Of a stretch of 64,000 nt of DNA, positions 2,788 through 48,162 are shown in pieces. Positions within the stretch are counted from its first letter, which is position 1; every line of letters starts with the position of its first letter. The stretch lies in the IMG/VR virus record IMGVR_UViG_3300027791_002264, positions 6,420-70,419 of that record; one strand, 5' to 3'. This DNA comes from a virus. Both the position numbers and the translations under genes were made by a program. The notes beneath the pieces are model-generated. The model had not been told where the DNA came from, did no database searches, and saw only the letters and a program-made list of their open reading frames with translations.

Positions 2788-3240
2788 ATGAATACCAAAT
2801 ACACTGCTACTTTTAAAATGGATAAAGGAGATATTACTTTTCGTCTTTATGATGAAACTCCAATAAACACTGGAAATTTTATTATTAAAGCAGAAGCCGG
2901 TAATTATGATGGCCAAAGTTTTGATAGGGTTATACCAGGCTTCATGGTGCAGTTAGGACCAAAGGAACAAGAAGGTGGTCATCCATACTTATATGATGAA
3001 TTAGAAACACCTCGAAGAAAAAAGAATAATAATTTTCATGCTTATGGCGTTTTAAGTGCTGCTAATACTGGATCACCACATACTTCAATGGGTGCATTCT
3101 TTATTTGTTTAAGTAGAAGAGGAACTCAACATTTAGATCCAGGTCATACAACATTTGGTCATGTTATTGATGGAATGGAATTAATTGAGCAGATTGCAGA
3201 AGGCGATACTGTTAATAATATAATTATTTCACTTACTTAA
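2788..3240 (+). CDS. Cyclophilin-type peptidyl-prolyl isomerase
   Basis: YDGQSFDRVIPGFMVQ, FFICL, HLDPGHTTFGHVIDGM cyclophilin motifs. Confidence 0.92.
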   Translation: MNTKYTATFKMDKGDITFRLYDETPINTGNFIIKAEAGNYDGQSFDRVIPGFMVQLGPKEQEGGHPYLYDELETPRRKKNNNFHAYGVLSAANTGSPHTSMGAFFICLSRRGTQHLDPGHTTFGHVIDGMELIEQIAEGDTVNNIIISLT

Positions 3241-3309: not shown

Positions 3310-4113
3310 ATGAAGAAAAATATAGTTTGGTTTGATTTAGAAACCACAGGAATAAGTACATCATCAGATCGTATCATAGAGATATGCATGATTAAAACCG
3401 ACTTTGACGGTAATGAGATTGAGACTTATAATCAATTAGTAAACCCAGGTAATGTAGAGATGAGAGCCGAAGCTGAAGAAAAGCATGGCATTTCTCTAGA
3501 GATGTTAAAGGATAAACCTACCTTTGAAATGATAGCATCTGAAATAAACGATTTTATTGGTGATTGCGACTTAGGAGGGTATAATGCCTTATTCTTTGAT
3601 GTACCATTTTTATGTGAGGAATTCATGAGATGTGGTATAGCATTTAACCATAGAGGTCGAGCAGTAATGGATCCTTTCCTTATTTATAGTAATTATGAAA
3701 AGAGAGATTTAACTAGTACTTATAAAAAATATACTGGTAAAGATTTAGAAGGTGCACATAGAGCTGAGGCTGATGTTAGAGCTACAATGGAAATATTTCA
3801 AAAACAAAGAGAAGTATACCAAATGGCTGATACTGCAGAAGAAATAGATAAGGAGGTAAATACTCGTAGAGCTGATCAAGTTGATTTAGGTGGTAAATTA
3901 AAATTTGCTGATGTAGATGGTAAAAGAACTATTATATTTAATTTTGGCAAGCATAAAGGAAAACCTTTTAGAGAAATATTTGAAAATGATTTTAACTATC
4001 TTTCATGGATAATTGAAAAAGGTGAATTTTCTAAAGAGCTTAAGATTATATTAACTAAATTAATTGCTAAGTTTAAAGCTGAAGAAAATAAAAATATAGA
4101 AATGCCATATTAA
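3310..4113 (+). CDS. DEDDh 3'-5' exonuclease (DNA Pol III epsilon-like)
   Basis: FDLETTG, YNALFFD, HRAEAD motifs; C-terminal FNFGKHKG domain. Confidence 0.92.
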   Translation: MKKNIVWFDLETTGISTSSDRIIEICMIKTDFDGNEIETYNQLVNPGNVEMRAEAEEKHGISLEMLKDKPTFEMIASEINDFIGDCDLGGYNALFFDVPFLCEEFMRCGIAFNHRGRAVMDPFLIYSNYEKRDLTSTYKKYTGKDLEGAHRAEADVRATMEIFQKQREVYQMADTAEEIDKEVNTRRADQVDLGGKLKFADVDGKRTIIFNFGKHKGKPFREIFENDFNYLSWIIEKGEFSKELKIILTKLIAKFKAEENKNIEMPY

Positions 4114-4116
4114 TCT

Positions 4117-4146
4117 TTCAGAAATAGAAAAGATTTGTTATTATTA
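4117..4146 (+). promoter_or_regulatory. Class A promoter motif TTCAG-N17-TATAWTTA (representative copy; 11 seen)
   Basis: Exact 17-nt spacer at 4117, 13192, 39680, 46523, 56651 and in the six cassettes upstream of 48335, 60413, 60695, 61251, 61695, 62684; the upstream box is degenerate in some copies. Confidence 0.7.
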
Positions 4147-4170
4147 TAATATACTAAACACAAAGATAAG

Positions 4171-4500
4171 ATGAATAGATTAGAAAATGCCAGCCTAGCA
4201 ACGGATTTAGGATTTCATAACCATGCATTTGAAGCAGCAATAGAAGATATAGAAAAAGTATGTGGCGCAGTAATGTACACTGATTCTGATATTACTGAAA
4301 GGACTCAAAATGAATGGGAGATGCAAACTGAAGATGGTACTCCTTTTACTATTTATGATTTTAAAGAATATCGTGAATATGATAAAGTTGAAAAGGTTAC
4401 ATGGCATATAGGCTCAGGTAATAGATTTGGATCAAAGAAAGGATATGATGAATTAAAAAGAGCATTCCATTTGCATCCAAAGATTGAGTATAATATATAA
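4171..4500 (+). CDS. Hypothetical phage protein
   Basis: 109-aa ORF after a class A promoter; FTIYDFK...WHIG motif. Confidence 0.7.
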   Translation: MNRLENASLATDLGFHNHAFEAAIEDIEKVCGAVMYTDSDITERTQNEWEMQTEDGTPFTIYDFKEYREYDKVEKVTWHIGSGNRFGSKKGYDELKRAFHLHPKIEYNI

Positions 4501-4528
4501 AGATTATAATTACGTTCTTTGATTTATT

Positions 4529-4872
4529 GGGGGTGACCGGTTTTTGACAATTAGATTGAGATAAAAACTACAGTACTGGGTGATGACCTCCATCAATCTT
4601 AGCCGACAACGCTGAGTTAGCAATGGCTGCCTAAGTAGGTAAGTAGTGCTCATCATATTATTAGTATGCTTGTAAATAATCGAGATGTAAAAGGAAGCAA
4701 GATGTGGTTTAGCAATGTACCCGTTAAACATTGCAACCAATAGAGCCTTTATGATTTTGTGGCCATGGAACATCAAAATCTGATTTTGGAAGTTTAAAGA
4801 AACTTATCCTAAGCTGTAAGAAATGTTTTTAAGGATACTTATTGGACGTGGGTTCGAATCCCACCACCTCCA
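4529..4872 (+). ncRNA. ssrA: tmRNA
   Basis: 5' GGGGGTG pairs with 3' CACCTCC-A including G3:U70; T-arm GTGGG-TTCGAAT-CCCAC; internal tag ORF 4602-4634 ADNAELAMAA-stop. Confidence 0.95.
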
Positions 4873-4876
4873 CAAT

Positions 4877-4949
4877 GCGAAAGTAGCTCAGTCGGTAGAG
4901 CATCAGTTTACCAAGCTGAGGGTCGCGGGTTCGAATCCCGTCTTTCGCT
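4877..4949 (+). tRNA. tRNA-Gly, anticodon ACC
   Basis: Full cloverleaf GCGAAAG/CTTTCGC, U73; anticodon arm TCAGT-TT-ACC-AA-GCTGA; T-arm GCGGG-TTCGAAT-CCCGT. Confidence 0.9.
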
Positions 4950-4963
4950 CAATATTATTAAAA

Positions 4964-5037
4964 GGGGAATTAGCTCAGCTGGCTAGAGCGCCTGCCTTGC
5001 ACGCAGGAGGTCATCGGTTCGACTCCGATATTCTCCA
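4964..5037 (+). tRNA. tRNA-Ala(UGC)
   Basis: GGGGAAT/ATTCTCC-A with G3:U70; CCTGC-CT-TGC-AC-GCAGG. Confidence 0.97.
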
Positions 5038-5064
5038 CAACAATTAAAATTAAATATATAGATT

Positions 5065-5235
5065 ATGAAGAAGTTTTTAAGTACATGGTATCCAATCATC
5101 ATAGCATTCACAGCAATGTTATATTCAATTGGATTAGGATTATTTGGATTAACAGAAGAAGCCCAATACTCAGCTCATTGGTCAGGAACAATTTTACTAT
5201 TTGCTATAGCAATCAGACAAAGACGAGGTAGATGA
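5065..5235 (+). CDS. Small membrane protein (56 aa, not in ORF track)
   Basis: MKKFLSTWYPIIIAFTAMLYSIGLGLFG...; two hydrophobic segments; ATGA overlap with next ORF. Confidence 0.65.
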   Translation: MKKFLSTWYPIIIAFTAMLYSIGLGLFGLTEEAQYSAHWSGTILLFAIAIRQRRGR

Positions 5236-5537
5236 ATATAGCAATGTTTATAGTAGGGGCATCAATATTTAGTGTTTATGTTGTTTTGCTAGTTTGGAAT
5301 ATTTTTTATAGTAACAAAAAACAAAGAGAAGAAAATTATCCAGGTTACTATGCTAGGCATGGACAACCAGAACAAGACAATTTAGAAGTACGTAAACAAC
5401 CGAAACAAGACAATTTAGAAGTACAATTAATGAATGCTAAAATTAATTCAACATCCCCATATAATGATGGATGGACGCAAGAAGGATATAAGGAGCAAGT
5501 AACTCATTTAGAGAAGAAAATAAAATCAGTTAAATAA
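5232..5537 (+). CDS. Membrane-anchored hypothetical protein with internal QPxQDNLEV repeat
   Basis: N-terminal TM; AACAAGACAATTTAGAAGTAC duplicated at 33-bp period. Confidence 0.7.
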   Translation: MNIAMFIVGASIFSVYVVLLVWNIFYSNKKQREENYPGYYARHGQPEQDNLEVRKQPKQDNLEVQLMNAKINSTSPYNDGWTQEGYKEQVTHLEKKIKSVK

Positions 5538-5912: not shown

Positions 5913-7787
5913 ATGGCAGTAAGCATTGAAAAGAAATACCAAAAATTAACAGACACAGAACATGTATTGTTAAGACCTGGTATGTATGTTGGATCTATTA
6001 AGCCACATACCGAAGAAGTATTTTTACCTATGAAAGGTAAAGATCAATTTCAACTTACTGAAGTAACTTATAATCCTGGATTCCTAAAACTGTTTGATGA
6101 AATAGTTTCTAACTCTGTTGATGAACATAAAAGAAATACTAAGCTGAATAAAGTTAAGGTAGATATAGATATGTCTACTGGTTTAATTTCTATATGGGAT
6201 AATGGAGGTATACCTGTAAAGATTCATAAAGAGTATGATGAGTGGGTACCAGAAATGATATTTTCTAATTTAAAGGCAGGTAGTAATTTTGATGATACTG
6301 AAGATAGGGTTGTTGTTGGAACAAATGGTGTAGGTAGTACATTAACAAATATATTTAGTAAAGAATTTATAATTGAAACTTGTGATGGTCAAAAACACTT
6401 TGCACAAACCTTTAAAAATAATATGTCTGAAAGGACTAAGGCTAAAATCACCAAAAAGAAAACTGCATATACAAAAATAACATATCTTACTGATTTTAAA
6501 AGATTTGGTTTAAATGGTATTAATAAGAATCATTATTTAATGATAACTAAAAGACTTATTGATATTGCTGCATGTAACCCAACTCTTAAAATATTTTTAA
6601 ATGATAAACCGATTGCCTTTAAAACTTTTAAAGATTATGCAAATCGTTATGTAACTCCAATATTTTATGATCAATCAGAACATTGGAAAATTGGAATTGG
6701 TCATTCAAAAACTGGCTTTAAAGCAATATCATTTGTTAATTCTGTTGAAACTAAAGATGGCGGTACTCATGTTAATAATATAGACTGGCAAATTACATCT
6801 TATCTTAGAGACAAGATTAAAAGAAAATACCGTGTAGATGTAAAACCTTCTGAATTAAGACAACATTTATATTTGTTTATAAATTGTACTGTTATTAATC
6901 CATCATTCTCTTCTCAAACTAAAGAAAAATTAATAACTCCTCCAAAGGATTTTGGTACAAGTCATGTATTAAGTGAAAAAGTCTTAAGACAGGTTTTAAA
7001 TTCTGAAATTATAGAATCCGTTTTAGATTGGATTAATAGAAAACAAGAAGCTGATGAAAGAGCAAAGCTTAGAAAATTAAATAAAGGTTTAGATAAAACT
7101 AAAGTTCTTAAATTAATAGATGCAAAGAAAAGAGGTGATAGAGCAAAATGTACACTTGCAATATTTGAAGGTGATTCTGCATCATCAGCATTTAGAAGAT
7201 ACAGAGAACCACAATACCAAGGAGCATTTCCACTAAGAGGTAAGTTTATTAATGTTAGAGAATTACCAGCATCTAAGGTTGTACAGAATAAAGAGGTACA
7301 ATCAATGATGGCTGCTATGGGTTTAAAGATCGGTCATGAACCTAAAGATCTAAGGTATGGTAAAATACTTTTATATACGGATGCAGATGTAGACGGTAAC
7401 TCCATTGCGGCATTACTAATTAATTTCTTAGGTAAATATTGGCCAGAATTATTTAGTGAAGGTAGGATTCTTAAAGTAGAAACACCTCTTATGGTTGCAA
7501 AGAAAGGTAAAGAATCATTAAACTTTTATTCTGATGATGATTATAAGGTATGGGAATCTAAACAAAGAAATCTTAATAGCTGGTCAATAGAATACAAAAA
7601 AGGTTTAGCCGCACTAGAAGATGCAGAATATAAGGAGATCATTAGAAGCCCGAGAACATTCACGCTTACAAAGGACAACGGATTTAACAATACTTTAGAT
7701 ATATGGTTCTCGAAAGATTCTAATCCTCGTAAAGGCAAGATATTAGGCGAAGAAATAATAATTAAAAACAATAAATCATTATTTTAG
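5913..7787 (+). CDS. Type IIA DNA topoisomerase, ATPase/TOPRIM subunit (T4 gp39+60-like)
   Basis: EHVLLRPGMYVGS, EIVSNSVDE, GTNGVG, EGDSA, PLRGK, DADVDG, KKGLA. Confidence 0.96.
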   Translation: MAVSIEKKYQKLTDTEHVLLRPGMYVGSIKPHTEEVFLPMKGKDQFQLTEVTYNPGFLKLFDEIVSNSVDEHKRNTKLNKVKVDIDMSTGLISIWDNGGIPVKIHKEYDEWVPEMIFSNLKAGSNFDDTEDRVVVGTNGVGSTLTNIFSKEFIIETCDGQKHFAQTFKNNMSERTKAKITKKKTAYTKITYLTDFKRFGLNGINKNHYLMITKRLIDIAACNPTLKIFLNDKPIAFKTFKDYANRYVTPIFYDQSEHWKIGIGHSKTGFKAISFVNSVETKDGGTHVNNIDWQITSYLRDKIKRKYRVDVKPSELRQHLYLFINCTVINPSFSSQTKEKLITPPKDFGTSHVLSEKVLRQVLNSEIIESVLDWINRKQEADERAKLRKLNKGLDKTKVLKLIDAKKRGDRAKCTLAIFEGDSASSAFRRYREPQYQGAFPLRGKFINVRELPASKVVQNKEVQSMMAAMGLKIGHEPKDLRYGKILLYTDADVDGNSIAALLINFLGKYWPELFSEGRILKVETPLMVAKKGKESLNFYSDDDYKVWESKQRNLNSWSIEYKKGLAALEDAEYKEIIRSPRTFTLTKDNGFNNTLDIWFSKDSNPRKGKILGEEIIIKNNKSLF

Positions 7788-9134
7788 ATGAAGAGCAATA
7801 GAACAGTAACATCCTTTTTTGATAAAGAATACTTAGAGTATGCAAGATACGTTGTAGAGAACAGGGCTATACCAAGTTGTATAGACGGTCTTAAACCTAC
7901 ACAGAGAAAAGTTGTTTATATTGCAAATAAGATATGGAAAACTGGTAATGAAAAACCAATGAAGCTTTTTCAACTTGCAGGTAGGGTAGCAGCTGAGGCA
8001 TTTTATCATCATGGTAATACTTCACTAGAATCTTCAATGGTTGGAATGGCACAGAAGTTTAAAAATTCATTACCATTATTAGAAGGTGTAGGTCAGTTTG
8101 GTTCTTTAAGAAGCCCAGCAGCAGGTGCACCGCGTTATATAAGTGCAAAGTTACATCCTAATTTTAGATTATTATATCAAGATTTTGATTTATTAGAAAA
8201 CAAAATAGAAGAAGGAGAAAAAATTGAACCAGCATTCTTTTTACCAATTGTACCAACTGTTATATTAAATGGAACATCTGGTATTGCTGTTGGTTTTGCT
8301 ACTAATATTTTAAATAGAAACCCTAAAGATGTAGTAGATGCATGTATTGCCACTCTAAATAATAAAAGAATGAAAGTATTAGCACCTTGGATACATGAAT
8401 TTAAAGGTACTTTTACTAGAGATTTAGAAAATCCTAAAACTTGGAAAATAAAAGGAGAGTATAAAATTATTAATACAACAACAGTAAAGATAACTGCAAT
8501 ACCTCCAAATTATACTTATGAAAGATATGAAGAGATTTTAAATCTTTTAATGGAAAAGGGTGTAATCACAAGCTATGATGATAATTCTTCTGAAACGATT
8601 GAGTACATATTAAAATTCAGAAGGTCAATATTAAATGACTTAGTTTCAAAAGGTAAGTTAGATAATGCACTTAGGTTAAACACACAAGAAACTGAAAATT
8701 TAACAACGATAGATGAAAATGGTGAATTAAAGATTTTTAATAAAGCCGAAGATATTGTAAAACATTTTGTTGGTGTAAGGTTATCATGGTATCAAACACG
8801 AAAAGATTATTTAATTGATAAAACAGAAAAGCAATTATCATTAGTAACAAATAAAGCAAGGTTCATTAAAGATATTATTGACAATAAATTAAAAATTAAT
8901 AATGTACTTAAAGAAAAGATTGTAACTTATTTAAAAACTAATGCATATGATACTGTTCATGGTTCATATGATTATCTTTTATCAATGGCTATTCATTCTT
9001 TAACAAAGGAAAGATATGAAAAATTGTTATTAGAAAAAGAAGAGTGTATTATTGCACTCAAGATGTTAAAGGCAACTGATCCTAAGACAATGTACTTAGA
9101 AGATCTTAAAAAATTAAAGTTATCAATTAAGTAA
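7788..9134 (+). CDS. Type IIA DNA topoisomerase, breakage-reunion subunit (gp52-like)
   Basis: RAIPSCIDGLKPTQRK, YHHG, GQFGS, APRY catalytic Tyr, NGTSGIAVGFAT. Confidence 0.96.
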   Translation: MKSNRTVTSFFDKEYLEYARYVVENRAIPSCIDGLKPTQRKVVYIANKIWKTGNEKPMKLFQLAGRVAAEAFYHHGNTSLESSMVGMAQKFKNSLPLLEGVGQFGSLRSPAAGAPRYISAKLHPNFRLLYQDFDLLENKIEEGEKIEPAFFLPIVPTVILNGTSGIAVGFATNILNRNPKDVVDACIATLNNKRMKVLAPWIHEFKGTFTRDLENPKTWKIKGEYKIINTTTVKITAIPPNYTYERYEEILNLLMEKGVITSYDDNSSETIEYILKFRRSILNDLVSKGKLDNALRLNTQETENLTTIDENGELKIFNKAEDIVKHFVGVRLSWYQTRKDYLIDKTEKQLSLVTNKARFIKDIIDNKLKINNVLKEKIVTYLKTNAYDTVHGSYDYLLSMAIHSLTKERYEKLLLEKEECIIALKMLKATDPKTMYLEDLKKLKLSIK

Positions 9135-9557: not shown

Positions 9558-9785
9558 ATGAATAAAAATATAATTTACGAAGCGCTTAAGGCACAATTCG
9601 AGGCACAGAGGCAACTTGCATTAGCAACATTAACAATCTATATGACTAATCCTGTAGGTATAGGAGAACATCCTCAGCATATTGAAGAAATGCAAACATT
9701 AACTAGATCATTAGCAGAGGCTGACGATTGTTTAGAAACATTAAAAAGAAATTTTGAAATAGCAGAAGCAGGAGCGGATGAATAA
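9558..9785 (+). CDS. Conserved phage hypothetical protein
   Basis: NPVGIGEHP motif typical of marine phage small proteins. Confidence 0.7.
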   Translation: MNKNIIYEALKAQFEAQRQLALATLTIYMTNPVGIGEHPQHIEEMQTLTRSLAEADDCLETLKRNFEIAEAGADE

Positions 9786-10257
9786 AATCATATTAATAGG
9801 AAAGGCCGCTGCTGGAAAAGATCATATGAGAAAGGTTTTAGAAGGTAGAGGTTTTACATACGGTACATCTTATACAACCAGACCTCCTAGGGATGGTGAA
9901 ATTGATGGCCAAGATTATTATTTTATTTCTAAAGAAGTTTTTAAGAAGTTTGCAGATAATAATTATTGGTATGAATATGTAGAATTCAACGGTTGGTTTT
10001 ATGGTACAAGCTATGAACAATTTAAAAAGACATGTAACTTATTTGTTATGACCCCTAAAGGTGTTGAGGCAATTAATCCTATTGATAGAAAAGACTGTAC
10101 TATCATTTATTTAGACATACCTTTAGAAATAAGAAAAGAAAGATTAAAATTAAGAGGTGATCTTAATGATAAGATAGAAAGAAGGATTGATGCTGATGAA
10201 ATGGATTTTGGTAAGTTTACTGATTATGATATTGTAATAAACAATTCTAACTTTTAA
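9778..10257 (+). CDS. Guanylate kinase-like NMP kinase
   Basis: GKAAAGK, SYTTRPPRDGEIDGQDYYFIS, WFYGT. Confidence 0.9.
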   Translation: MNKIILIGKAAAGKDHMRKVLEGRGFTYGTSYTTRPPRDGEIDGQDYYFISKEVFKKFADNNYWYEYVEFNGWFYGTSYEQFKKTCNLFVMTPKGVEAINPIDRKDCTIIYLDIPLEIRKERLKLRGDLNDKIERRIDADEMDFGKFTDYDIVINNSNF

Positions 10258-10275
10258 CTATATAAAAATAAAACA

Positions 10276-10887
10276 ATGAGTAAATTCATTATTATAGAAG
10301 GTACCGATAATGTAGGTAAAGATACCCAGCAAGATTTAATTATTAAAAACATGAGTGATCACGTTTTTCATAAGTTACATTATTCATCATTACCGTTTAA
10401 AGATGATAAAGAAAAGCATGCAACATATTCTAAAGAACTTTATGAAAGCATGTTTTTATTAATGATGAAATCTAAACTTGCTCATAAAAAAGGTGATCCA
10501 AATATTAACCTTATATTTAATAGATCTCATTTAGGTGAAACTGTTTATTCTCCATTATATAGAGGTTACTCTGGTGATTATGTTTTTGATATTGAAAAGA
10601 AATTTACTAAAGCATTAAGAGAAGATCTTTATTTAATTACATTAACTAATGATCCACATACTATATTAAAAAGAGATGATGGCAAATCTTTTTATGGTAA
10701 TGAAGAAGAAGTTAAAGCTGAGGTTGATGGATTTACAAGAGCTCATCGATTAAGTACTATTAAAAATAAGTTACATATTAATGTTGGTACAATGAGTGCA
10801 ATAGAAGTTTCTCATATTATAACAGAATTTCTAAAACACAAGAACACAGTAACAGGTGATAACAAACAATTAAATATGTTTTCATAA
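10276..10887 (+). CDS. Thymidylate-kinase-like dNMP kinase
   Basis: IIIEGTDNVGKDT, FNRSHLGETVYSPLYRG. Confidence 0.8.
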   Translation: MSKFIIIEGTDNVGKDTQQDLIIKNMSDHVFHKLHYSSLPFKDDKEKHATYSKELYESMFLLMMKSKLAHKKGDPNINLIFNRSHLGETVYSPLYRGYSGDYVFDIEKKFTKALREDLYLITLTNDPHTILKRDDGKSFYGNEEEVKAEVDGFTRAHRLSTIKNKLHINVGTMSAIEVSHIITEFLKHKNTVTGDNKQLNMFS

Positions 10888-11075
10888 TGAGTAGCGCAGA
10901 AGATATAATGTATAAGGCTCATAATGAAGGTATCAGAGCTGAGGTGTTTATAGAATCACAAAAGTTAAGAGAAGAAAATCCTATGAAATATAAATACAAA
11001 GAAAATGTAGATATATTAGAAGAAGCGTATAAAATAGTATTAGAACGAAAGAATAAAAAGAATGAGAACATATAG
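10887..11075 (+). CDS. Hypothetical protein
   Basis: 62-aa coupled ORF. Confidence 0.6.
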   Translation: MSSAEDIMYKAHNEGIRAEVFIESQKLREENPMKYKYKENVDILEEAYKIVLERKNKKNENI

Positions 11076-11943
11076 AGGAGATACATTTGCAGAAGTTTAT
11101 GAAAAGGCATTAATAGATACTTTAGACAATCCTGATTATACTTCTAAACCAAGAGGTATGGAAATTAAAGAAATCTGTAATGCAGCATTAGTTATAGATG
11201 ATCCTTATTATCCACTGTATGAAAATGAAAAAAGGAGTAGTCAATTTAAATATATTGCTGGTGAAACTATATGGTATTTTACAGGAAGAAAGGATATTGA
11301 TTTTATAAGTAAATATTCTAAATTTTGGAGCCAATTAGATAACGGTGATGGTACTGTTAATTCTGCTTATGGTAATCTTATATTTAATGAACCTCTTTCT
11401 GATGGTAGAAATCAATACCAATGGGCATTAGATTCTTTAATAGAAGATAAAGACTCAAGGCAATCAATTATTCATTTTAATAAACCATCTCATCAATGGA
11501 AAGGTAATAAAGATTTTGTATGTACTCTTAATGGTATATTTCAAATTAGAGATAACAGATTAAACTTTACAGTTGATATGAGGTCTAATGATTTAGTATT
11601 AGGTACCGCAACCGATGTAGCATTCTTTTGTTTACTACAGCAACAAATGTTAAAACATTTAAAGTTAACATATCCTAATTTAAAAATGGGTTCTTATACT
11701 CATATCGTTCATTCATTGCATATTTATGAAAGACATTTTAATTTAGTAAAAGAAATGTTAAGCCATCCATTTTCTCATATGTCTTATCCACCTTTAAATG
11801 AAAACTTAATTACTAGAAAAGGGCATCCTACTGATAACATGAATTTGATAGAATCTGATATTCTTTTAGGCTTTGAAGGTGATTTCTTTAATGATCCACT
11901 ATTTGAATGGTTAGCATTTAACAGTAACGGTGGAGATATATAA
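11062..11943 (+). CDS. Thymidylate-synthase-family enzyme, dCMP hydroxymethylase/methylase-like
   Basis: DFVCT...IRD...MRSND...G...D with Asp at catalytic Cys+31; SLHIYERH. Confidence 0.8.
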   Translation: MRTYRGDTFAEVYEKALIDTLDNPDYTSKPRGMEIKEICNAALVIDDPYYPLYENEKRSSQFKYIAGETIWYFTGRKDIDFISKYSKFWSQLDNGDGTVNSAYGNLIFNEPLSDGRNQYQWALDSLIEDKDSRQSIIHFNKPSHQWKGNKDFVCTLNGIFQIRDNRLNFTVDMRSNDLVLGTATDVAFFCLLQQQMLKHLKLTYPNLKMGSYTHIVHSLHIYERHFNLVKEMLSHPFSHMSYPPLNENLITRKGHPTDNMNLIESDILLGFEGDFFNDPLFEWLAFNSNGGDI

Positions 11944-39728: not shown

Positions 39729-41753
39729 ATGGGAGAAATTTATCCAGAAGAAGAAGCACAACAAAGAAAACCAAGATATAAAAAGACAACTTTAATATTA
39801 GATACTTATGGTACTAATCTAAGTAAGTCGGCTATAGAGGGTAAGCTTGATCCAGTTATTGGACGAACTGATGAAATCCTAAGAGTGATTCAAATTCTAG
39901 GAAGGCGAAGAAAAAATAATCCTGTTTTAGTAGGCGAACCTGGTGTAGGTAAAACTGCAATAGTCGAAGGTTTAGCACTAAAAATGGTAGAGGGTAATGT
40001 TCCCATATCATTACAAGGAAAAGTCATATATACTTTAGAGTTATCAACTATCGTTGCAGGTACAAAATACCGAGGTCAATTTGAGGAAAGAATGAAAAGT
40101 ATAGTTGATGAATTAATACTCAATCCACATATTATTATTTTTATTGATGAATTACATACCTTAGTAGGGGCAGGTGGTTCAACAGGATCATTAGATGCTT
40201 CTAATATTATTAAGCCTGCTTTAGCAAGAGGAGAAATTAGATGTATAGGTGCAACAACGTTTGATGAATTTAGAGAAAACATTGAAGAAGATGGTGCTTT
40301 AGATAGAAGATTTCAAAAAGTAGTAGTAGATCCACCATCGTTAGAAGAAACCATTGAAATACTTTCTAATATTAGACATAAGTATGAAGAGCATCATGGA
40401 GTATCATATTCAGATGATGTAATTAATCTTATTGTTAAATTAGCAGACCGTTATGTTATGGATCGTTTCTTTCCAGATAAAGCAGTTGATATTTTAGACG
40501 AGGTAGGATCTTACAAACATTTAACTAATATGAAGATTCCTCAAAAGATTAAAGCTTTAGAAGAAAAGTTAGTTGAAAAAGAAAATGCTAAAAGAAAGGC
40601 AGTATCAAGGCAATTATATGAAGTAGCTGCGAGAGAAAGAGATATGTGTTTAAATCTTAAAGAAAAAATTAAAACTGATCTTGCTGTATGGAAAACTGAA
40701 ATGGCAGTTAATCAACTAGAAATATCTGAAGATGATGTATTAAAGGTTGTATCAAAAGCAACAGGTGTTCCAATAGAAAAAATATCTGATAAAGAAAATA
40801 AAAATTTACTAGGTCTTAATAAACATTTATCATCTAAGGTTATAGGGCAAGAAGAAGCTGTTAATAAAATAGCAGTAACAGTACAAAGAAACCGAGTAGG
40901 TATTAGAAAAAGAAACCGAACAATGGGTAACTTTATATTCTTAGGACCAACTGGTGTAGGTAAAACTCAATTAGCTAAAGAATTAACAGAATATTTATTT
41001 AATAGTGAAGATAATCTAATAAGAGTTGATATGTCTGAATACATGGAATCTCATTCTACTTCAAAATTAATTGGAGCCCCTCCAGGATATGTAGGTTTTG
41101 AAGGTGGGGGTTTTTTAACAGAGCAGGTGAAAAGAAAACCACACTCTGTTATATTATTTGATGAAGTAGAGAAAGCTCATCCAGATGTATTTAATGTACT
41201 TCTACAGATGTTAGATGATGGGCAGTTAACTGATTCATTAGGCAGGACTGTTGATTTTAGAAATTGTTTAGTAATACTTACATCAAACACAGGGTCTAGA
41301 AAATTAGAAGATTTTGGACAAGGCATTGGTTTTGAAAGCTCTACTAAAATGGTTAATCAAGTTGAAGAAGAAAAATCTATGTTAAGAAAGGCTCTTAAAA
41401 ATAAATTCTCACCAGAGTTTTTAAATAGAATTGATGAAATAGTAGTATTTAACAGATTAACAGAAGATAATGTAATGGAAATTTTAACTAAGGAATGTAA
41501 AGAACTTGCATTAAACTTAACAGAGGTTGGTAATTATATTTTTAAAATATCTAAAGGTGCTAAAACAATAATTTTAAATCAAGGTTATGATCCTAAGTTT
41601 GGGGCAAGACCATTACGTAGAACTGTTGAGAGATTAATTGAAAACAAAGTATCTGAATTAATTCTTAAAGGTGAATTAAAAGAAGGCGGTACTATTAATG
41701 TTAAAAGTACAAAAGGTGAATTAATAATTGATATAACAAATATAAAAGAATAA
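39729..41753 (+). CDS. clpC: ClpC-type AAA+ unfoldase lacking the N-terminal domain
   Basis: LDPVIGR, GEPGVGKT, GPTGVGKT, DMSEYME, GAPPGYVG, UVR-like middle domain, IGF loop. Confidence 0.9.
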   Translation: MGEIYPEEEAQQRKPRYKKTTLILDTYGTNLSKSAIEGKLDPVIGRTDEILRVIQILGRRRKNNPVLVGEPGVGKTAIVEGLALKMVEGNVPISLQGKVIYTLELSTIVAGTKYRGQFEERMKSIVDELILNPHIIIFIDELHTLVGAGGSTGSLDASNIIKPALARGEIRCIGATTFDEFRENIEEDGALDRRFQKVVVDPPSLEETIEILSNIRHKYEEHHGVSYSDDVINLIVKLADRYVMDRFFPDKAVDILDEVGSYKHLTNMKIPQKIKALEEKLVEKENAKRKAVSRQLYEVAARERDMCLNLKEKIKTDLAVWKTEMAVNQLEISEDDVLKVVSKATGVPIEKISDKENKNLLGLNKHLSSKVIGQEEAVNKIAVTVQRNRVGIRKRNRTMGNFIFLGPTGVGKTQLAKELTEYLFNSEDNLIRVDMSEYMESHSTSKLIGAPPGYVGFEGGGFLTEQVKRKPHSVILFDEVEKAHPDVFNVLLQMLDDGQLTDSLGRTVDFRNCLVILTSNTGSRKLEDFGQGIGFESSTKMVNQVEEEKSMLRKALKNKFSPEFLNRIDEIVVFNRLTEDNVMEILTKECKELALNLTEVGNYIFKISKGAKTIILNQGYDPKFGARPLRRTVERLIENKVSELILKGELKEGGTINVKSTKGELIIDITNIKE

Positions 41754-45335: not shown

Positions 45336-46505
45336 ATGGATTTAAGAATAACAAAAATATTAGAAAAAGAAAAGATTAGACAATCAGATACAATTGAACT
45401 GATAGCAAGTGAAAATTTTGCAAGTGAAGATGTAATGGAGTTAGCAGGATCTATATTAACCAATAAGTACGCAGAAGGGTATCCAGGTAAGAGATATTAT
45501 AATGGCTGTGAGCATATGGATGAAATAGAAACTCTTGCAATAGAACAGCTGAAGGAATTATATAATGCCAACTTTGCTAATGTTCAGCCTCATTGTGGAG
45601 CAAATGCTAATACGGCAGTCTACCAAGCATTCCTAAAACCTGGAGATAAAATACTTGGAATGGATTTAGCAAGCGGTGGTCATTTATCACATGGTAGTAA
45701 ACCTAATATATCTGGTAAAGTTTATGATGCGTATTCTTATGGGGTAGATGAAAATGGATTGTTAGATTATAATGAAATAAGAAAGATAGCAATTAAGGTA
45801 CAACCTAAGATGATTGTAGCAGGAGCAAGTGCTTATCCAAGAATCATAAATTGGAAAGAATTCAGAGATATAGCAGATAGTGTAGGAGCATTACTGTTAG
45901 TAGACATGGCACATTATTCAGGATTGATAGCAGGAAATACGTACCCTTCACCAATACCTTATGCAGATGTAGTTACATCTACAACACATAAAACTCTAAG
46001 AGGACCTAGAGGAGGTATTATATTATGGAACAATTCAGATTACACTAAGCGTATAAATAGTTCTATTTTCCCAGGTACACAAGGAGGCCCTTTAATGCAT
46101 ATCATAGCAGCAAAGGCTCAATGTTTTATTGAAGCAAATACAGATGAGTTTAAAGAATATACTCGCAATGTAATAGAAAATGCTAAAGCAATGTGTGATG
46201 TATTCGTAAAGAATGGAGTTTCAGTACAAACTGATGGAACTGATAGTCATATAATATTAATGGATTTATCAAATAGTCAACATAGCGGTAGGGAGTTTGC
46301 AGATATATTAGAAGACAATGGAATCACTGTTAATAAAAATGGTATACCTAATGACCCTCGTAGTTTTATAGAAACAAGTGGAATCCGTATAGGAACAGCG
46401 GCAGAAACTACTCGAGGTAGAGATAAGAAATGGTTTAAGGACCTTGCTCAAAAAATATGTATGTTTCTCCACTTATCTAAAATTGTCCATAAAAGACCAT
46501 TTTAA
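45336..46505 (+). CDS. glyA: Serine hydroxymethyltransferase
   Basis: LIASENF, NKYAEGYPGKRYY, GGHLSHG, TTHKTLRGPRGG, FPG.QGGP. Confidence 0.97.
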   Translation: MDLRITKILEKEKIRQSDTIELIASENFASEDVMELAGSILTNKYAEGYPGKRYYNGCEHMDEIETLAIEQLKELYNANFANVQPHCGANANTAVYQAFLKPGDKILGMDLASGGHLSHGSKPNISGKVYDAYSYGVDENGLLDYNEIRKIAIKVQPKMIVAGASAYPRIINWKEFRDIADSVGALLLVDMAHYSGLIAGNTYPSPIPYADVVTSTTHKTLRGPRGGIILWNNSDYTKRINSSIFPGTQGGPLMHIIAAKAQCFIEANTDEFKEYTRNVIENAKAMCDVFVKNGVSVQTDGTDSHIILMDLSNSQHSGREFADILEDNGITVNKNGIPNDPRSFIETSGIRIGTAAETTRGRDKKWFKDLAQKICMFLHLSKIVHKRPF

Positions 46506-48047: not shown

Positions 48048-48162
48048 GGAGGGTTAGCCAAGTGGTAACGGCGCTATACCTTTTAAGGATTGAAAAGCAA
48101 TGCTAGCTGCGCAAAGTAAATCTTAGGTATGGAAATCAGGGGTTCGATTCCCCTACCCACCA
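48048..48162 (+). ncRNA. tRNA-like RNA with ~40-nt insertion in the anticodon arm
   Basis: Acceptor GGAGGGT/ACCCACC-A (one mismatch), D-arm GCC..GGC, T-arm AGGGG-TTCGATT-CCCCT, 49 nt between the anticodon-stem strands. Confidence 0.8.

Follow-up and report, generated by a model that had tools for sequence, protein, structure and literature searches.

Three RNA genes lie head to tail at positions 4529-5038 of the window, i.e., the whole stretch of 64,000 nucleotides analyzed here: a tmRNA gene, a gene for tRNA-Gly with the anticodon ACC, and a gene for tRNA-Ala(UGC), as called by ARAGORN and Rfam. The features of this cluster are the following:

4529..4873, plus strand: phage tmRNA with the tag DNAELAMAA (ARAGORN; Rfam RF00023, 76.8 bits, mapped to 4529-4875)
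4877..4949, plus strand: tRNA-Gly(ACC) with U73 and no encoded CCA, followed by CAA (ARAGORN, Rfam, direct reading)
4910..4912, plus strand: anticodon A34-C35-C36 within the loop UUACCAA at 4908-4914 (sequence, ARAGORN)
4876..4961, plus strand: insertion of approximately 86 nt, composed of the tRNA-Gly gene and the spacer CAATATTATTAAAA (alignment with relatives; edges ambiguous by a few bases)
4964..5038, plus strand: tRNA-Ala(UGC) (ARAGORN; Rfam, 69.4 bits)

A scan of 4000-5400 for promoters and terminators yielded nothing above shuffled expectation. All three RNA genes lack an encoded CCA (4871-4876, 4950-4952, and 5038-5041) and are followed by CAA. Because of this, the lineage of the window needs a CCA-adding enzyme. 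CCA is encoded in four of five aligned relatives, where the tmRNA ends in CCACCA.

The window comprises bases 6420-70419 of a 70,419-bp IMG/VR virus record with a CheckV completeness of 24%. Its GC content varies between 27% and 34%, as in a phage of approximately 30% GC, and its genes lie nearly all on the plus strand and read well in code 11. The public runs containing this region are seawater and marine metagenomes. Best GenBank matches of the topoisomerase are uncultured huge phages of 460-640 kb, at approximately 50% amino-acid identity. The source is a marine, AT-rich jumbo phage.

Elsewhere in the window, the gene content is typical for very large phages (2788-3240, 3310-4113, 5913-9134, 9778-11943, 39729-41753, and 45336-46505), with a cyclophilin-type PPIase, an RNase T/ExoX-like exonuclease, a split topoisomerase II, guanylate and thymidylate kinases, a thymidylate synthase, a ClpB-like double-AAA chaperone, and a serine hydroxymethyltransferase. 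A further tRNA-like gene was observed at 48048-48162 on the plus strand (Rfam tRNA, 42.4 bits), with 40-48 extra bases in its anticodon arm. Default ARAGORN misses it; with introns allowed, the program reports tRNA-Lys(ttt) with a 40-nt intron. Its homologue in a 181-kb relative (L244, 1501-1628) is 93% identical, shows two compensated T-stem changes, and has its putative anticodon altered from TTT to TCT, i.e., from a Lys to an Arg reading. The fold z-score of the gene is only -1.1. A short intron or an extended anticodon arm is unusual in a phage tRNA.

Direct reading of 4877-4949 reveals a tRNA of 73 nt with a 7-bp acceptor stem (G1-C72, C2-G71, G3-C70) and U73, a D arm with G18G19, the anticodon stem UCAGU/GCUGA, the variable loop GGGUC, and a T arm. 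The anticodon loop is UUACCAA, and A34 corresponds to position 4910. ARAGORN places a tRNA-Gly(acc) at 4877-4950, and the Rfam model RF00005 matches with 71.4 bits (gathering threshold 29; E = 1.3e-13), covering model positions 1-71 in full and without a single non-canonical pair. The preliminary description of this DNA, made from the letters alone, had proposed a cloverleaf of Gly identity with A34 and the anticodon ACC, and all three lines of evidence confirm it. A single-sequence minimum free energy fold with a non-cloverleaf centre was set aside in favor of the covariance model and the covariation reported next.

In an alignment of 16 ACC and GCC tRNA-Gly sequences, the cloverleaf is paired in 336 of 336 cells (100%). 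Both sides have changed in 11 of the 21 pairs, including all five pairs of the anticodon stem, and none of 500 shuffles reached the covariation score of the alignment. G1-C72, C2-G71, G3-C70, C35, and C36 are invariant, and T73 is conserved in at least 90% of the sequences. The identity set of bacterial glycyl-tRNA synthetase (GlyRS) consists of G1-C72, C2-G71, G3-C70, U73, C35, and C36; it is present in full in the tRNA of the window.

As for the body of the tRNA, the earlier notion of a UCC-like molecule with three differences had to be abandoned. When the anticodon is masked and 1044 distinct tRNAs are ranked by similarity, the first 40 consist of Gly(ACC) and Gly(GCC) without a single UCC, and the highest-ranking non-Gly tRNA scores 56 of 70. 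By its neighbours, the body is of the GCC type, not of the UCC type. The loop UUACCAA differs from the GCC-type loop UUGCCAA solely at position 34. Given this GCC-type body, ACC is therefore one G34A transition away.

The same tRNA is found in further assemblies. The IMG/VR viral contigs were scanned with a pattern of 43 bases that spans the anticodon and leaves position 34 free (N); all five other contigs that match it carry ACC. Conservation in related phage contigs, named in the preliminary description as a check, is thus seen in 5/5 cases. The tRNA-Gly(ACC) is 100% identical across the six contigs (window plus five), which partly reflects recent ancestry, since the gene is limited to a narrow clade (see below). 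The adjoining tmRNA varies among these contigs (approximately 18 differing columns, counted by eye, in contig L007), and the tRNA-Ala of contigs with the identical tRNA-Gly shows a compensated T-stem change. Furthermore, 14 DNA runs each contain half or more of the words sampled from the region. A sequencing error, which had been doubted from the start, is ruled out by these independent assemblies. The original argument from three differences does not hold, however: the body is not UCC-like, and the case against an error therefore rests on the assemblies.

Via the topoisomerase II gene approximately 1 kb downstream, 27 related loci were gathered, with protein identities of 74-99%. Only three of them, those with 99% topoisomerase identity (contigs of L005, L006, and L008), contain the tRNA-Gly(ACC). 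Nineteen have the tmRNA and/or the tRNA-Ala and no tRNA-Gly, and in 13 of these 19 the tRNA-Ala follows 3-7 bases after the tmRNA. Three loci have no tRNA, and the two most distant ones (74-76% identity) hold large tRNA arrays that include Gly(GCC). Aligned with its relatives, the window shows a clean insertion of approximately 86 nt, made up of the tRNA-Gly and a 14-nt spacer. A single tRNA gene thus appears to have been slotted into an existing tmRNA/tRNA transcription unit.

Gly codon usage in 20 related loci without tRNA-Gly (GGT 57%, GGC 9%) is the same as in the window, and since the gene is absent from relatives with the same usage, it is dispensable for this phage family. Because its absence spans the deeper diversity, a gain would be more parsimonious than a loss. 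As far as these alignments and distributions indicate, tRNA-Gly(ACC) is a recent, dispensable addition to the existing unit. Its nearest relatives are ACC tRNAs from other phage contigs (64/70), and in the tree of ACC and GCC tRNAs described below it falls into an all-ACC cluster of seven (support 86, unstarred). Both observations suggest that the gene arrived with ACC already in place.

The neighborhood of tmRNA and tRNA-Ala is conserved in the phage family, with a tmRNA called by ARAGORN at 20 of those 27 loci. They carry the tags DNAELAMAA, DNAEYAMAA, DNAEFAMAA, GNAELAMAA, GNTELAMAA, and GNTQLAMAA; for the tmRNA of locus L222, ARAGORN reads a different, longer tag. In the uncultured huge phage LR745206, whose matched region is 86% identical, a tRNA-Gly(GCC) precedes the tRNA-Ala. 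We take the LR74/LR75 records to be the huge phages of Al-Shayeb et al. 2020. A blastn similarity search with the region and three other ACC tRNA clusters found no close match in 50,697 GenBank phage records. Among cultured phages, we set aside the best tRNA match (89%), in Erwinia phage Asesino, which is annotated as Gly(ccc), matches to Gly(UCC) in Aeromonas phiA8-29 and Vibrio 1.186.O, and a match in Alishewanella Slicko01 annotated as tRNA-Gly, where the anticodon is not stated.

A stricter, general ACC pattern, GGTAGAGC-N6-TTACCAA-N6-GGTC-N4-GTTCGA, matched 45 viral contigs with 18 distinct sequences. On 40 new loci with this pattern, ARAGORN returned Gly(acc) in 39 cases and Gly(gcc) in none. 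The viral gene is usually located within a tRNA array, beside Gly(tcc), and the 18 distinct sequences differ in their anticodon and T stems through compensated changes. Two records of jumbo phages are close to or at full length: one of 360 kb with terminal repeats and 48 tRNAs, rated 100% complete, and one of 295 kb with 28 tRNAs, rated 98% complete. In both, Gly(ACC) and Gly(UCC) are present and GCC is lacking, the GC content is 32%, and 60-63% of the Gly codons are GGT and 2-3% GGC. In bacterial tRNA-Gly(UCC), an xm5U-type U34 reportedly reads only GGA and GGG. This limitation may be why glycine, of all amino acids, calls for a second tRNA in such near-minimal phage sets.

A maximum-likelihood tree was built from 113 distinct ACC and GCC tRNAs. 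It is weakly resolved because it rests on only 73 columns; at least 13 switches between ACC and GCC are required on it, ten of which are forced by starred (well-supported) branches. Three ACC/GCC pairs in this set have identical bodies, and the all-ACC cluster of seven covers several synteny types. The tree indicates that tRNA-Gly(ACC) has repeatedly replaced GCC in AT-rich phages that seldom use GGC. We see about an even chance that ACC represents a recurrent, long-maintained phage tRNA which replaced GCC some ten times or more in AT-rich, mostly large, aquatic phages, moves between phage lineages as a gene, and decodes GGU (possibly GGN) with an unmodified A34.

Other A34 tRNAs besides Arg were observed in the phage arrays, among them Thr(agt) in loci L040 and L046 and Pro(agg) in L047. 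Among the 1044 distinct tRNAs, a biased collection, A34 occurs in 24 Gly(acc), 20 Arg(acg), and three Thr(agt); Ser(aga), Pro(agg), Ala(agc), His(atg), and Leu(aag) are represented once each in this biased set. ARAGORN also reports tRNAs with anticodons of four bases (agac) or two bases (tc, ta) in the arrays of ACC-bearing phage contigs (L012, 2880-2953 and 4319-4396; L030, 1785-1863).

In cells, the same strict ACC pattern, applied to one genome for each of 185,579 species, matched seven loci: six contigs of metagenome-assembled genomes (MAGs) and one Shewanella array. One of the six MAG contigs shares its arm and synteny with a viral contig. Three of five ACC-bearing cellular genomes examined also have a GCC copy of the same arm. 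Such cellular ACC copies look like young G34A mutants of redundant GCC genes. With seven pattern matches in 185,579 species, and with reviews that report Gly(ACC) as universally missing, its near absence from cells, as stated in the preliminary description, is well founded. For one bacterial phylum, 301 genomes were sampled, and the R34 form of the pattern occurred in 200 of them; among the 150 of its matches listed, all are GCC; the sole ACC copy noticed in this sample, that of genome G006 itself, was found separately from the 150 listed matches. In viral contigs, the GCC form of the pattern gave at least 120 matches. Relative to GCC, ACC is far commoner in viral contigs than in cells.

Two of the cellular cases deserve a description. 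A 5.6-kb contig of a Flavobacteriales MAG (L056) shares its tRNA-Gly arm with viral contig L029 and has the order Ala-Gly(acc)-Gln-Glu; probably, a phage sequence ended up in the MAG by binning. On a contig of Shewanella saliphila (L060, 5896-6466), four GCC copies and one ACC copy are identical except for position 34. A pairing of GCC and ACC like that in Shewanella was also seen in a Dehalococcoidia MAG and a Bacteroidaceae MAG.

Codon usage was counted in 71 ATG-started plus-strand ORFs of at least 100 aa. The 1211 Gly codons of the window comprise 658 GGT (54%), 396 GGA (33%), 92 GGC (8%), and 65 GGG (5%), and the dominance of GGT, earlier judged by eye, is thus borne out by the count. GC content is 27-38% (median 33%) at 36 ACC loci vs. 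31-71% (median 42%) at 103 GCC loci (p 2e-14), where the p-value, like those that follow, overstates independence since the loci in the GC and codon comparisons are related. Among viral loci matched at 27-38.5% GC (36 ACC vs. 32 GCC carriers), the share of GGT is 0.51 vs. 0.56 (p 0.90) and that of GGC 0.05 vs. 0.06 (p 0.39). Even so matched, the ACC loci are slightly more AT-rich than the GCC loci (0.333 vs. 0.358, p 1e-4).

Equal Gly codon usage in GC-matched ACC and GCC phages means that codon usage is at most permissive: a usage rich in GGU and poor in GGC provides a background that permits ACC rather than a proven cause of it. For the adaptation to GGU codons suggested in the preliminary description, the result is divided. 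The confinement of ACC to AT-rich phage loci agrees with it, whereas GC-matched GCC loci and the relatives without the gene show the same usage.

Given equal codon usage in both kinds of carriers, the switch can be put down to AT mutational pressure just as well as to adaptation. It is conceivable, though we hold it for the less probable course, that ACC is near-neutral: under AT pressure and with few GGC codons, G34A would have been tolerated and would have drifted to fixation, translation not being improved. The confinement of ACC to loci of 27-38% GC, slightly more AT-rich than even GC-matched GCC loci, would fit such a drift, as would the equal Gly codon usage of ACC and GCC carriers and the ACC/GCC pairs with identical bodies. 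In addition, genomic B34A replacements were almost neutral in E. coli according to the available part of a 2026 preprint. However, ACC persists while the tRNA bodies diverge with compensated stems, and the all-ACC cluster of seven extends across several synteny types. Moreover, the window phage gained an additional gene by insertion, which drift at a single base does not account for.

How the tRNA reads its codons depends on the state of A34, which in the window tRNA-Gly(ACC) we believe, with good though not full confidence, to be unmodified. TadA needs a UACG core within the seven-base loop YUACGAA on a stem, as stated in the accessible part of PMC12255301. This core is absent from UUACCAA, and as position 36 is C and not the G of UACG, formation of I34 is doubtful. 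Like tRNA-Arg(ACG), the TadA substrate, with which it co-occurs in phage tRNA arrays, tRNA-Gly(ACC) has A34 in a four-codon box and shares Y32, U33, A34, C35, A37, and A38; unlike tRNA-Arg(ACG), it has C at position 36 instead of the G of the core. In E. coli, Gly-tRNA(ACC) was unmodified and a poor TadA substrate (Boren 1993, cited in the available text of 10.64898/2026.05.15.725136). Human ADAT deaminates tRNA-Gly(ACC) poorly, and its charging is good (Saint-Leger 2016, PMC4928997, seen in excerpt). No TadA-like gene was found in the record of the window (24% complete) or in five large ACC-bearing phage records. Two deaminase matches in large ACC-bearing records were rejected as ComEB/dCMP-deaminase-like, with 30 bits against a TadA cut-off of 150.

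Taken together with the loop, these observations bear on a second alternative, which we regard as unlikely: the tRNA might work as ICC, with the host TadA, or an unseen phage deaminase, making an I34 that would read GGU, GGC, and GGA. After all, UUACCAA matches YUACGAA at six of seven positions, and overexpressed TadA edits some sites one base off the core motif (PMC12255301, part of the text). Phage tRNA sets with ACC also hold Arg(ACG), and some ACC-bearing loci use GGC at 21-33%. But the one mismatch concerns G36, inside the very core that the same excerpt reports as required. The poor performance of ACC with the E. coli and human enzymes in the partial sources just cited and the absence of a TadA-like gene from the window's record and the five large ones argue in the same direction.

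With regard to expression, the tmRNA is represented by contigs from four metatranscriptome runs of three studies, which begin at 4537 (at 4470 in one run) and reach 4829-4871; the contig of run X15 has no mismatch over 330 nt. The main tmRNA contigs of X15, X16, and X18 end at 4866-4871, just before the tRNA-Gly, and that of X17 ends at 4829. Contig ends near the 3' end of the tmRNA give a weak hint at processing there, where carry-over of DNA is possible. In these four runs, no contig of this phage covers 4877-4949. Short RNA pieces at this position have 3-4 mismatches, or a loose end that corresponds to the UCC-type loop of another organism.

All in all, the gene is probably a genuine and functional elongator tRNA-Gly of a marine, AT-rich jumbo phage, decoding GGU. 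That its function is of an ordinary kind, the decoding of glycine codons, is very probable. Its transcript would likely be shared with tmRNA and tRNA-Ala, and release by RNase P and 3' trimming would be followed by the addition of CCA. With the GlyRS identity set on a GCC-type body, the tRNA should be charged by the host glycyl-tRNA synthetase. On the ribosome, A34 would form a Watson-Crick pair with the U of GGU, the commonest Gly codon (54%). Other GGN codons may be read weakly, as the literature leads us to expect, which would be harmless because the box comprises four codons. An ACC mutant of E. coli tRNA-Gly supports elongation, ACC is accepted for charging by human GlyRS (PMC4928997, in the part available), and overexpression of Gly-tRNA(ACC) in E. 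coli impaired lag phase and growth rate (10.64898/2026.05.15.725136, likewise in part).

Escape from defence has been proposed for phage tRNAs with changes in the anticodon loop (eLife 2023, PMC10264068, as far as accessible), and A34 might accordingly spare the phage tRNA when the host tRNA-Gly(GCC) is cut by an anticodon nuclease or a different defence directed at tRNAs. We consider this very improbable, as no result points to a nuclease targeting tRNA-Gly, the rest of the loop is an ordinary GCC-type loop, and escape does not predict a restriction to AT-rich genomes. The tRNA further possesses G18G19, a TTCGA T-loop, and the T-stem pairs G49-U65, C50-G64, and G51-C63, elongator features which mark an EF-Tu-competent tRNA-Gly. 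These features, and the lack of a reason for a donor to need ACC, make it hardly believable that the tRNA is no decoder and serves as glycine donor in a non-ribosomal reaction, e.g., a tRNA-dependent modification of DNA or cell wall, for which the Mom protein of phage Mu, modifying DNA by means of Gly-tRNA-Gly, offers a model (PMC13219725, in excerpt). Finally, a mistake in sequencing or assembly, or a pseudogene without function, can be dismissed as next to negligible: GCC needs one transition to become ACC and the ACC copies of cellular genomes resemble point mutants of multi-copy GCC genes, but ACC is present in six contigs, at least half of the region's sampled words recur in the 14 DNA runs, the structure is perfect and scores high, and many diverged phage homologues have kept ACC.

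As a probable decoder of GGU, the phage tRNA-Gly(ACC) can be compared with known systems. It resembles bacterial and phage tRNA-Gly(GCC) of the E. coli tRNA-Gly3 type in body, identity nucleotides, and loop except position 34. With A34 in place of G34, an A-U pair would replace the G-U wobble on GGU, and the G-C pair with GGC would be lost. With the engineered tRNA-Gly(ACC) of E. coli and human (Boren 1993; Saint-Leger 2016; Raval et al. 2026), as described in the available parts of these works, it has the anticodon and a native Gly backbone in common. The engineered molecules can reportedly be charged and function in elongation, and they stay unmodified in E. coli (PMC4928997; 10.64898/2026.05.15.725136; both in part). 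In contrast to these laboratory mutants, of which the ACC of Raval et al. was derived from a CCC isoacceptor according to the accessible text, the phage gene is natural and kept in genomes. A natural parallel comes from Lactobacillales and Mollicutes with 60-70% AT and many codons ending in U: there, Leu(AAG) and Thr(AGU), both ANN, took the place of GNN (10.64898/2026.05.15.725136, available portion). There as here, A34 replaces G34 in a four-codon box of AT-rich genomes; the difference lies in the Gly box and in the carriers, which are phages and not cells.

Glycine is the one four-codon box whose ANN tRNA is reported as universally absent (reviews; 10.64898/2026.05.15.725136, in part), and tRNA-Gly(ACC) has been called "systematically banished" (PMC6720975). 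The authors of the 2026 preprint write in its accessible part that their own results "sharpen the paradox" (10.64898/2026.05.15.725136), and the words "phage" and "virus" are absent from that part. Phage tRNAs are said to lack the same "prohibited" genes as those of bacteria (review PMC8007984). The paper behind this statement, Morgado & Vicente 2019 (PMC6409571), contains no anticodon-level analysis in its main text, where "anticodon" occurs once, in the methods. Our viral scans contradict the statement of PMC8007984 on prohibited genes in the case of Gly(ACC). We found no description of a phage tRNA-Gly(ACC) in the literature; supplementary tables of anticodons could list such genes, possibly the anticodon tables of Morgado & Vicente or Table S2 and Figs S10-S12 of Raval et al. 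The phage genes represent an ordinary tRNA family, in natural recurrence, with an anticodon believed to be excluded.

It is an old question what keeps A34 out of tRNA-Gly in every domain of life, and so far only engineered mutants have been used to address it. If expressed and charged, the phage genes would provide natural, evolved ACC tRNAs, including variants of the anticodon arm that may have co-adapted. They would also add a case of tRNA sets being tailored to AT-rich phage genomes. If this holds true, phages would constitute a natural system in which to study why cells exclude A34 from the glycine box.
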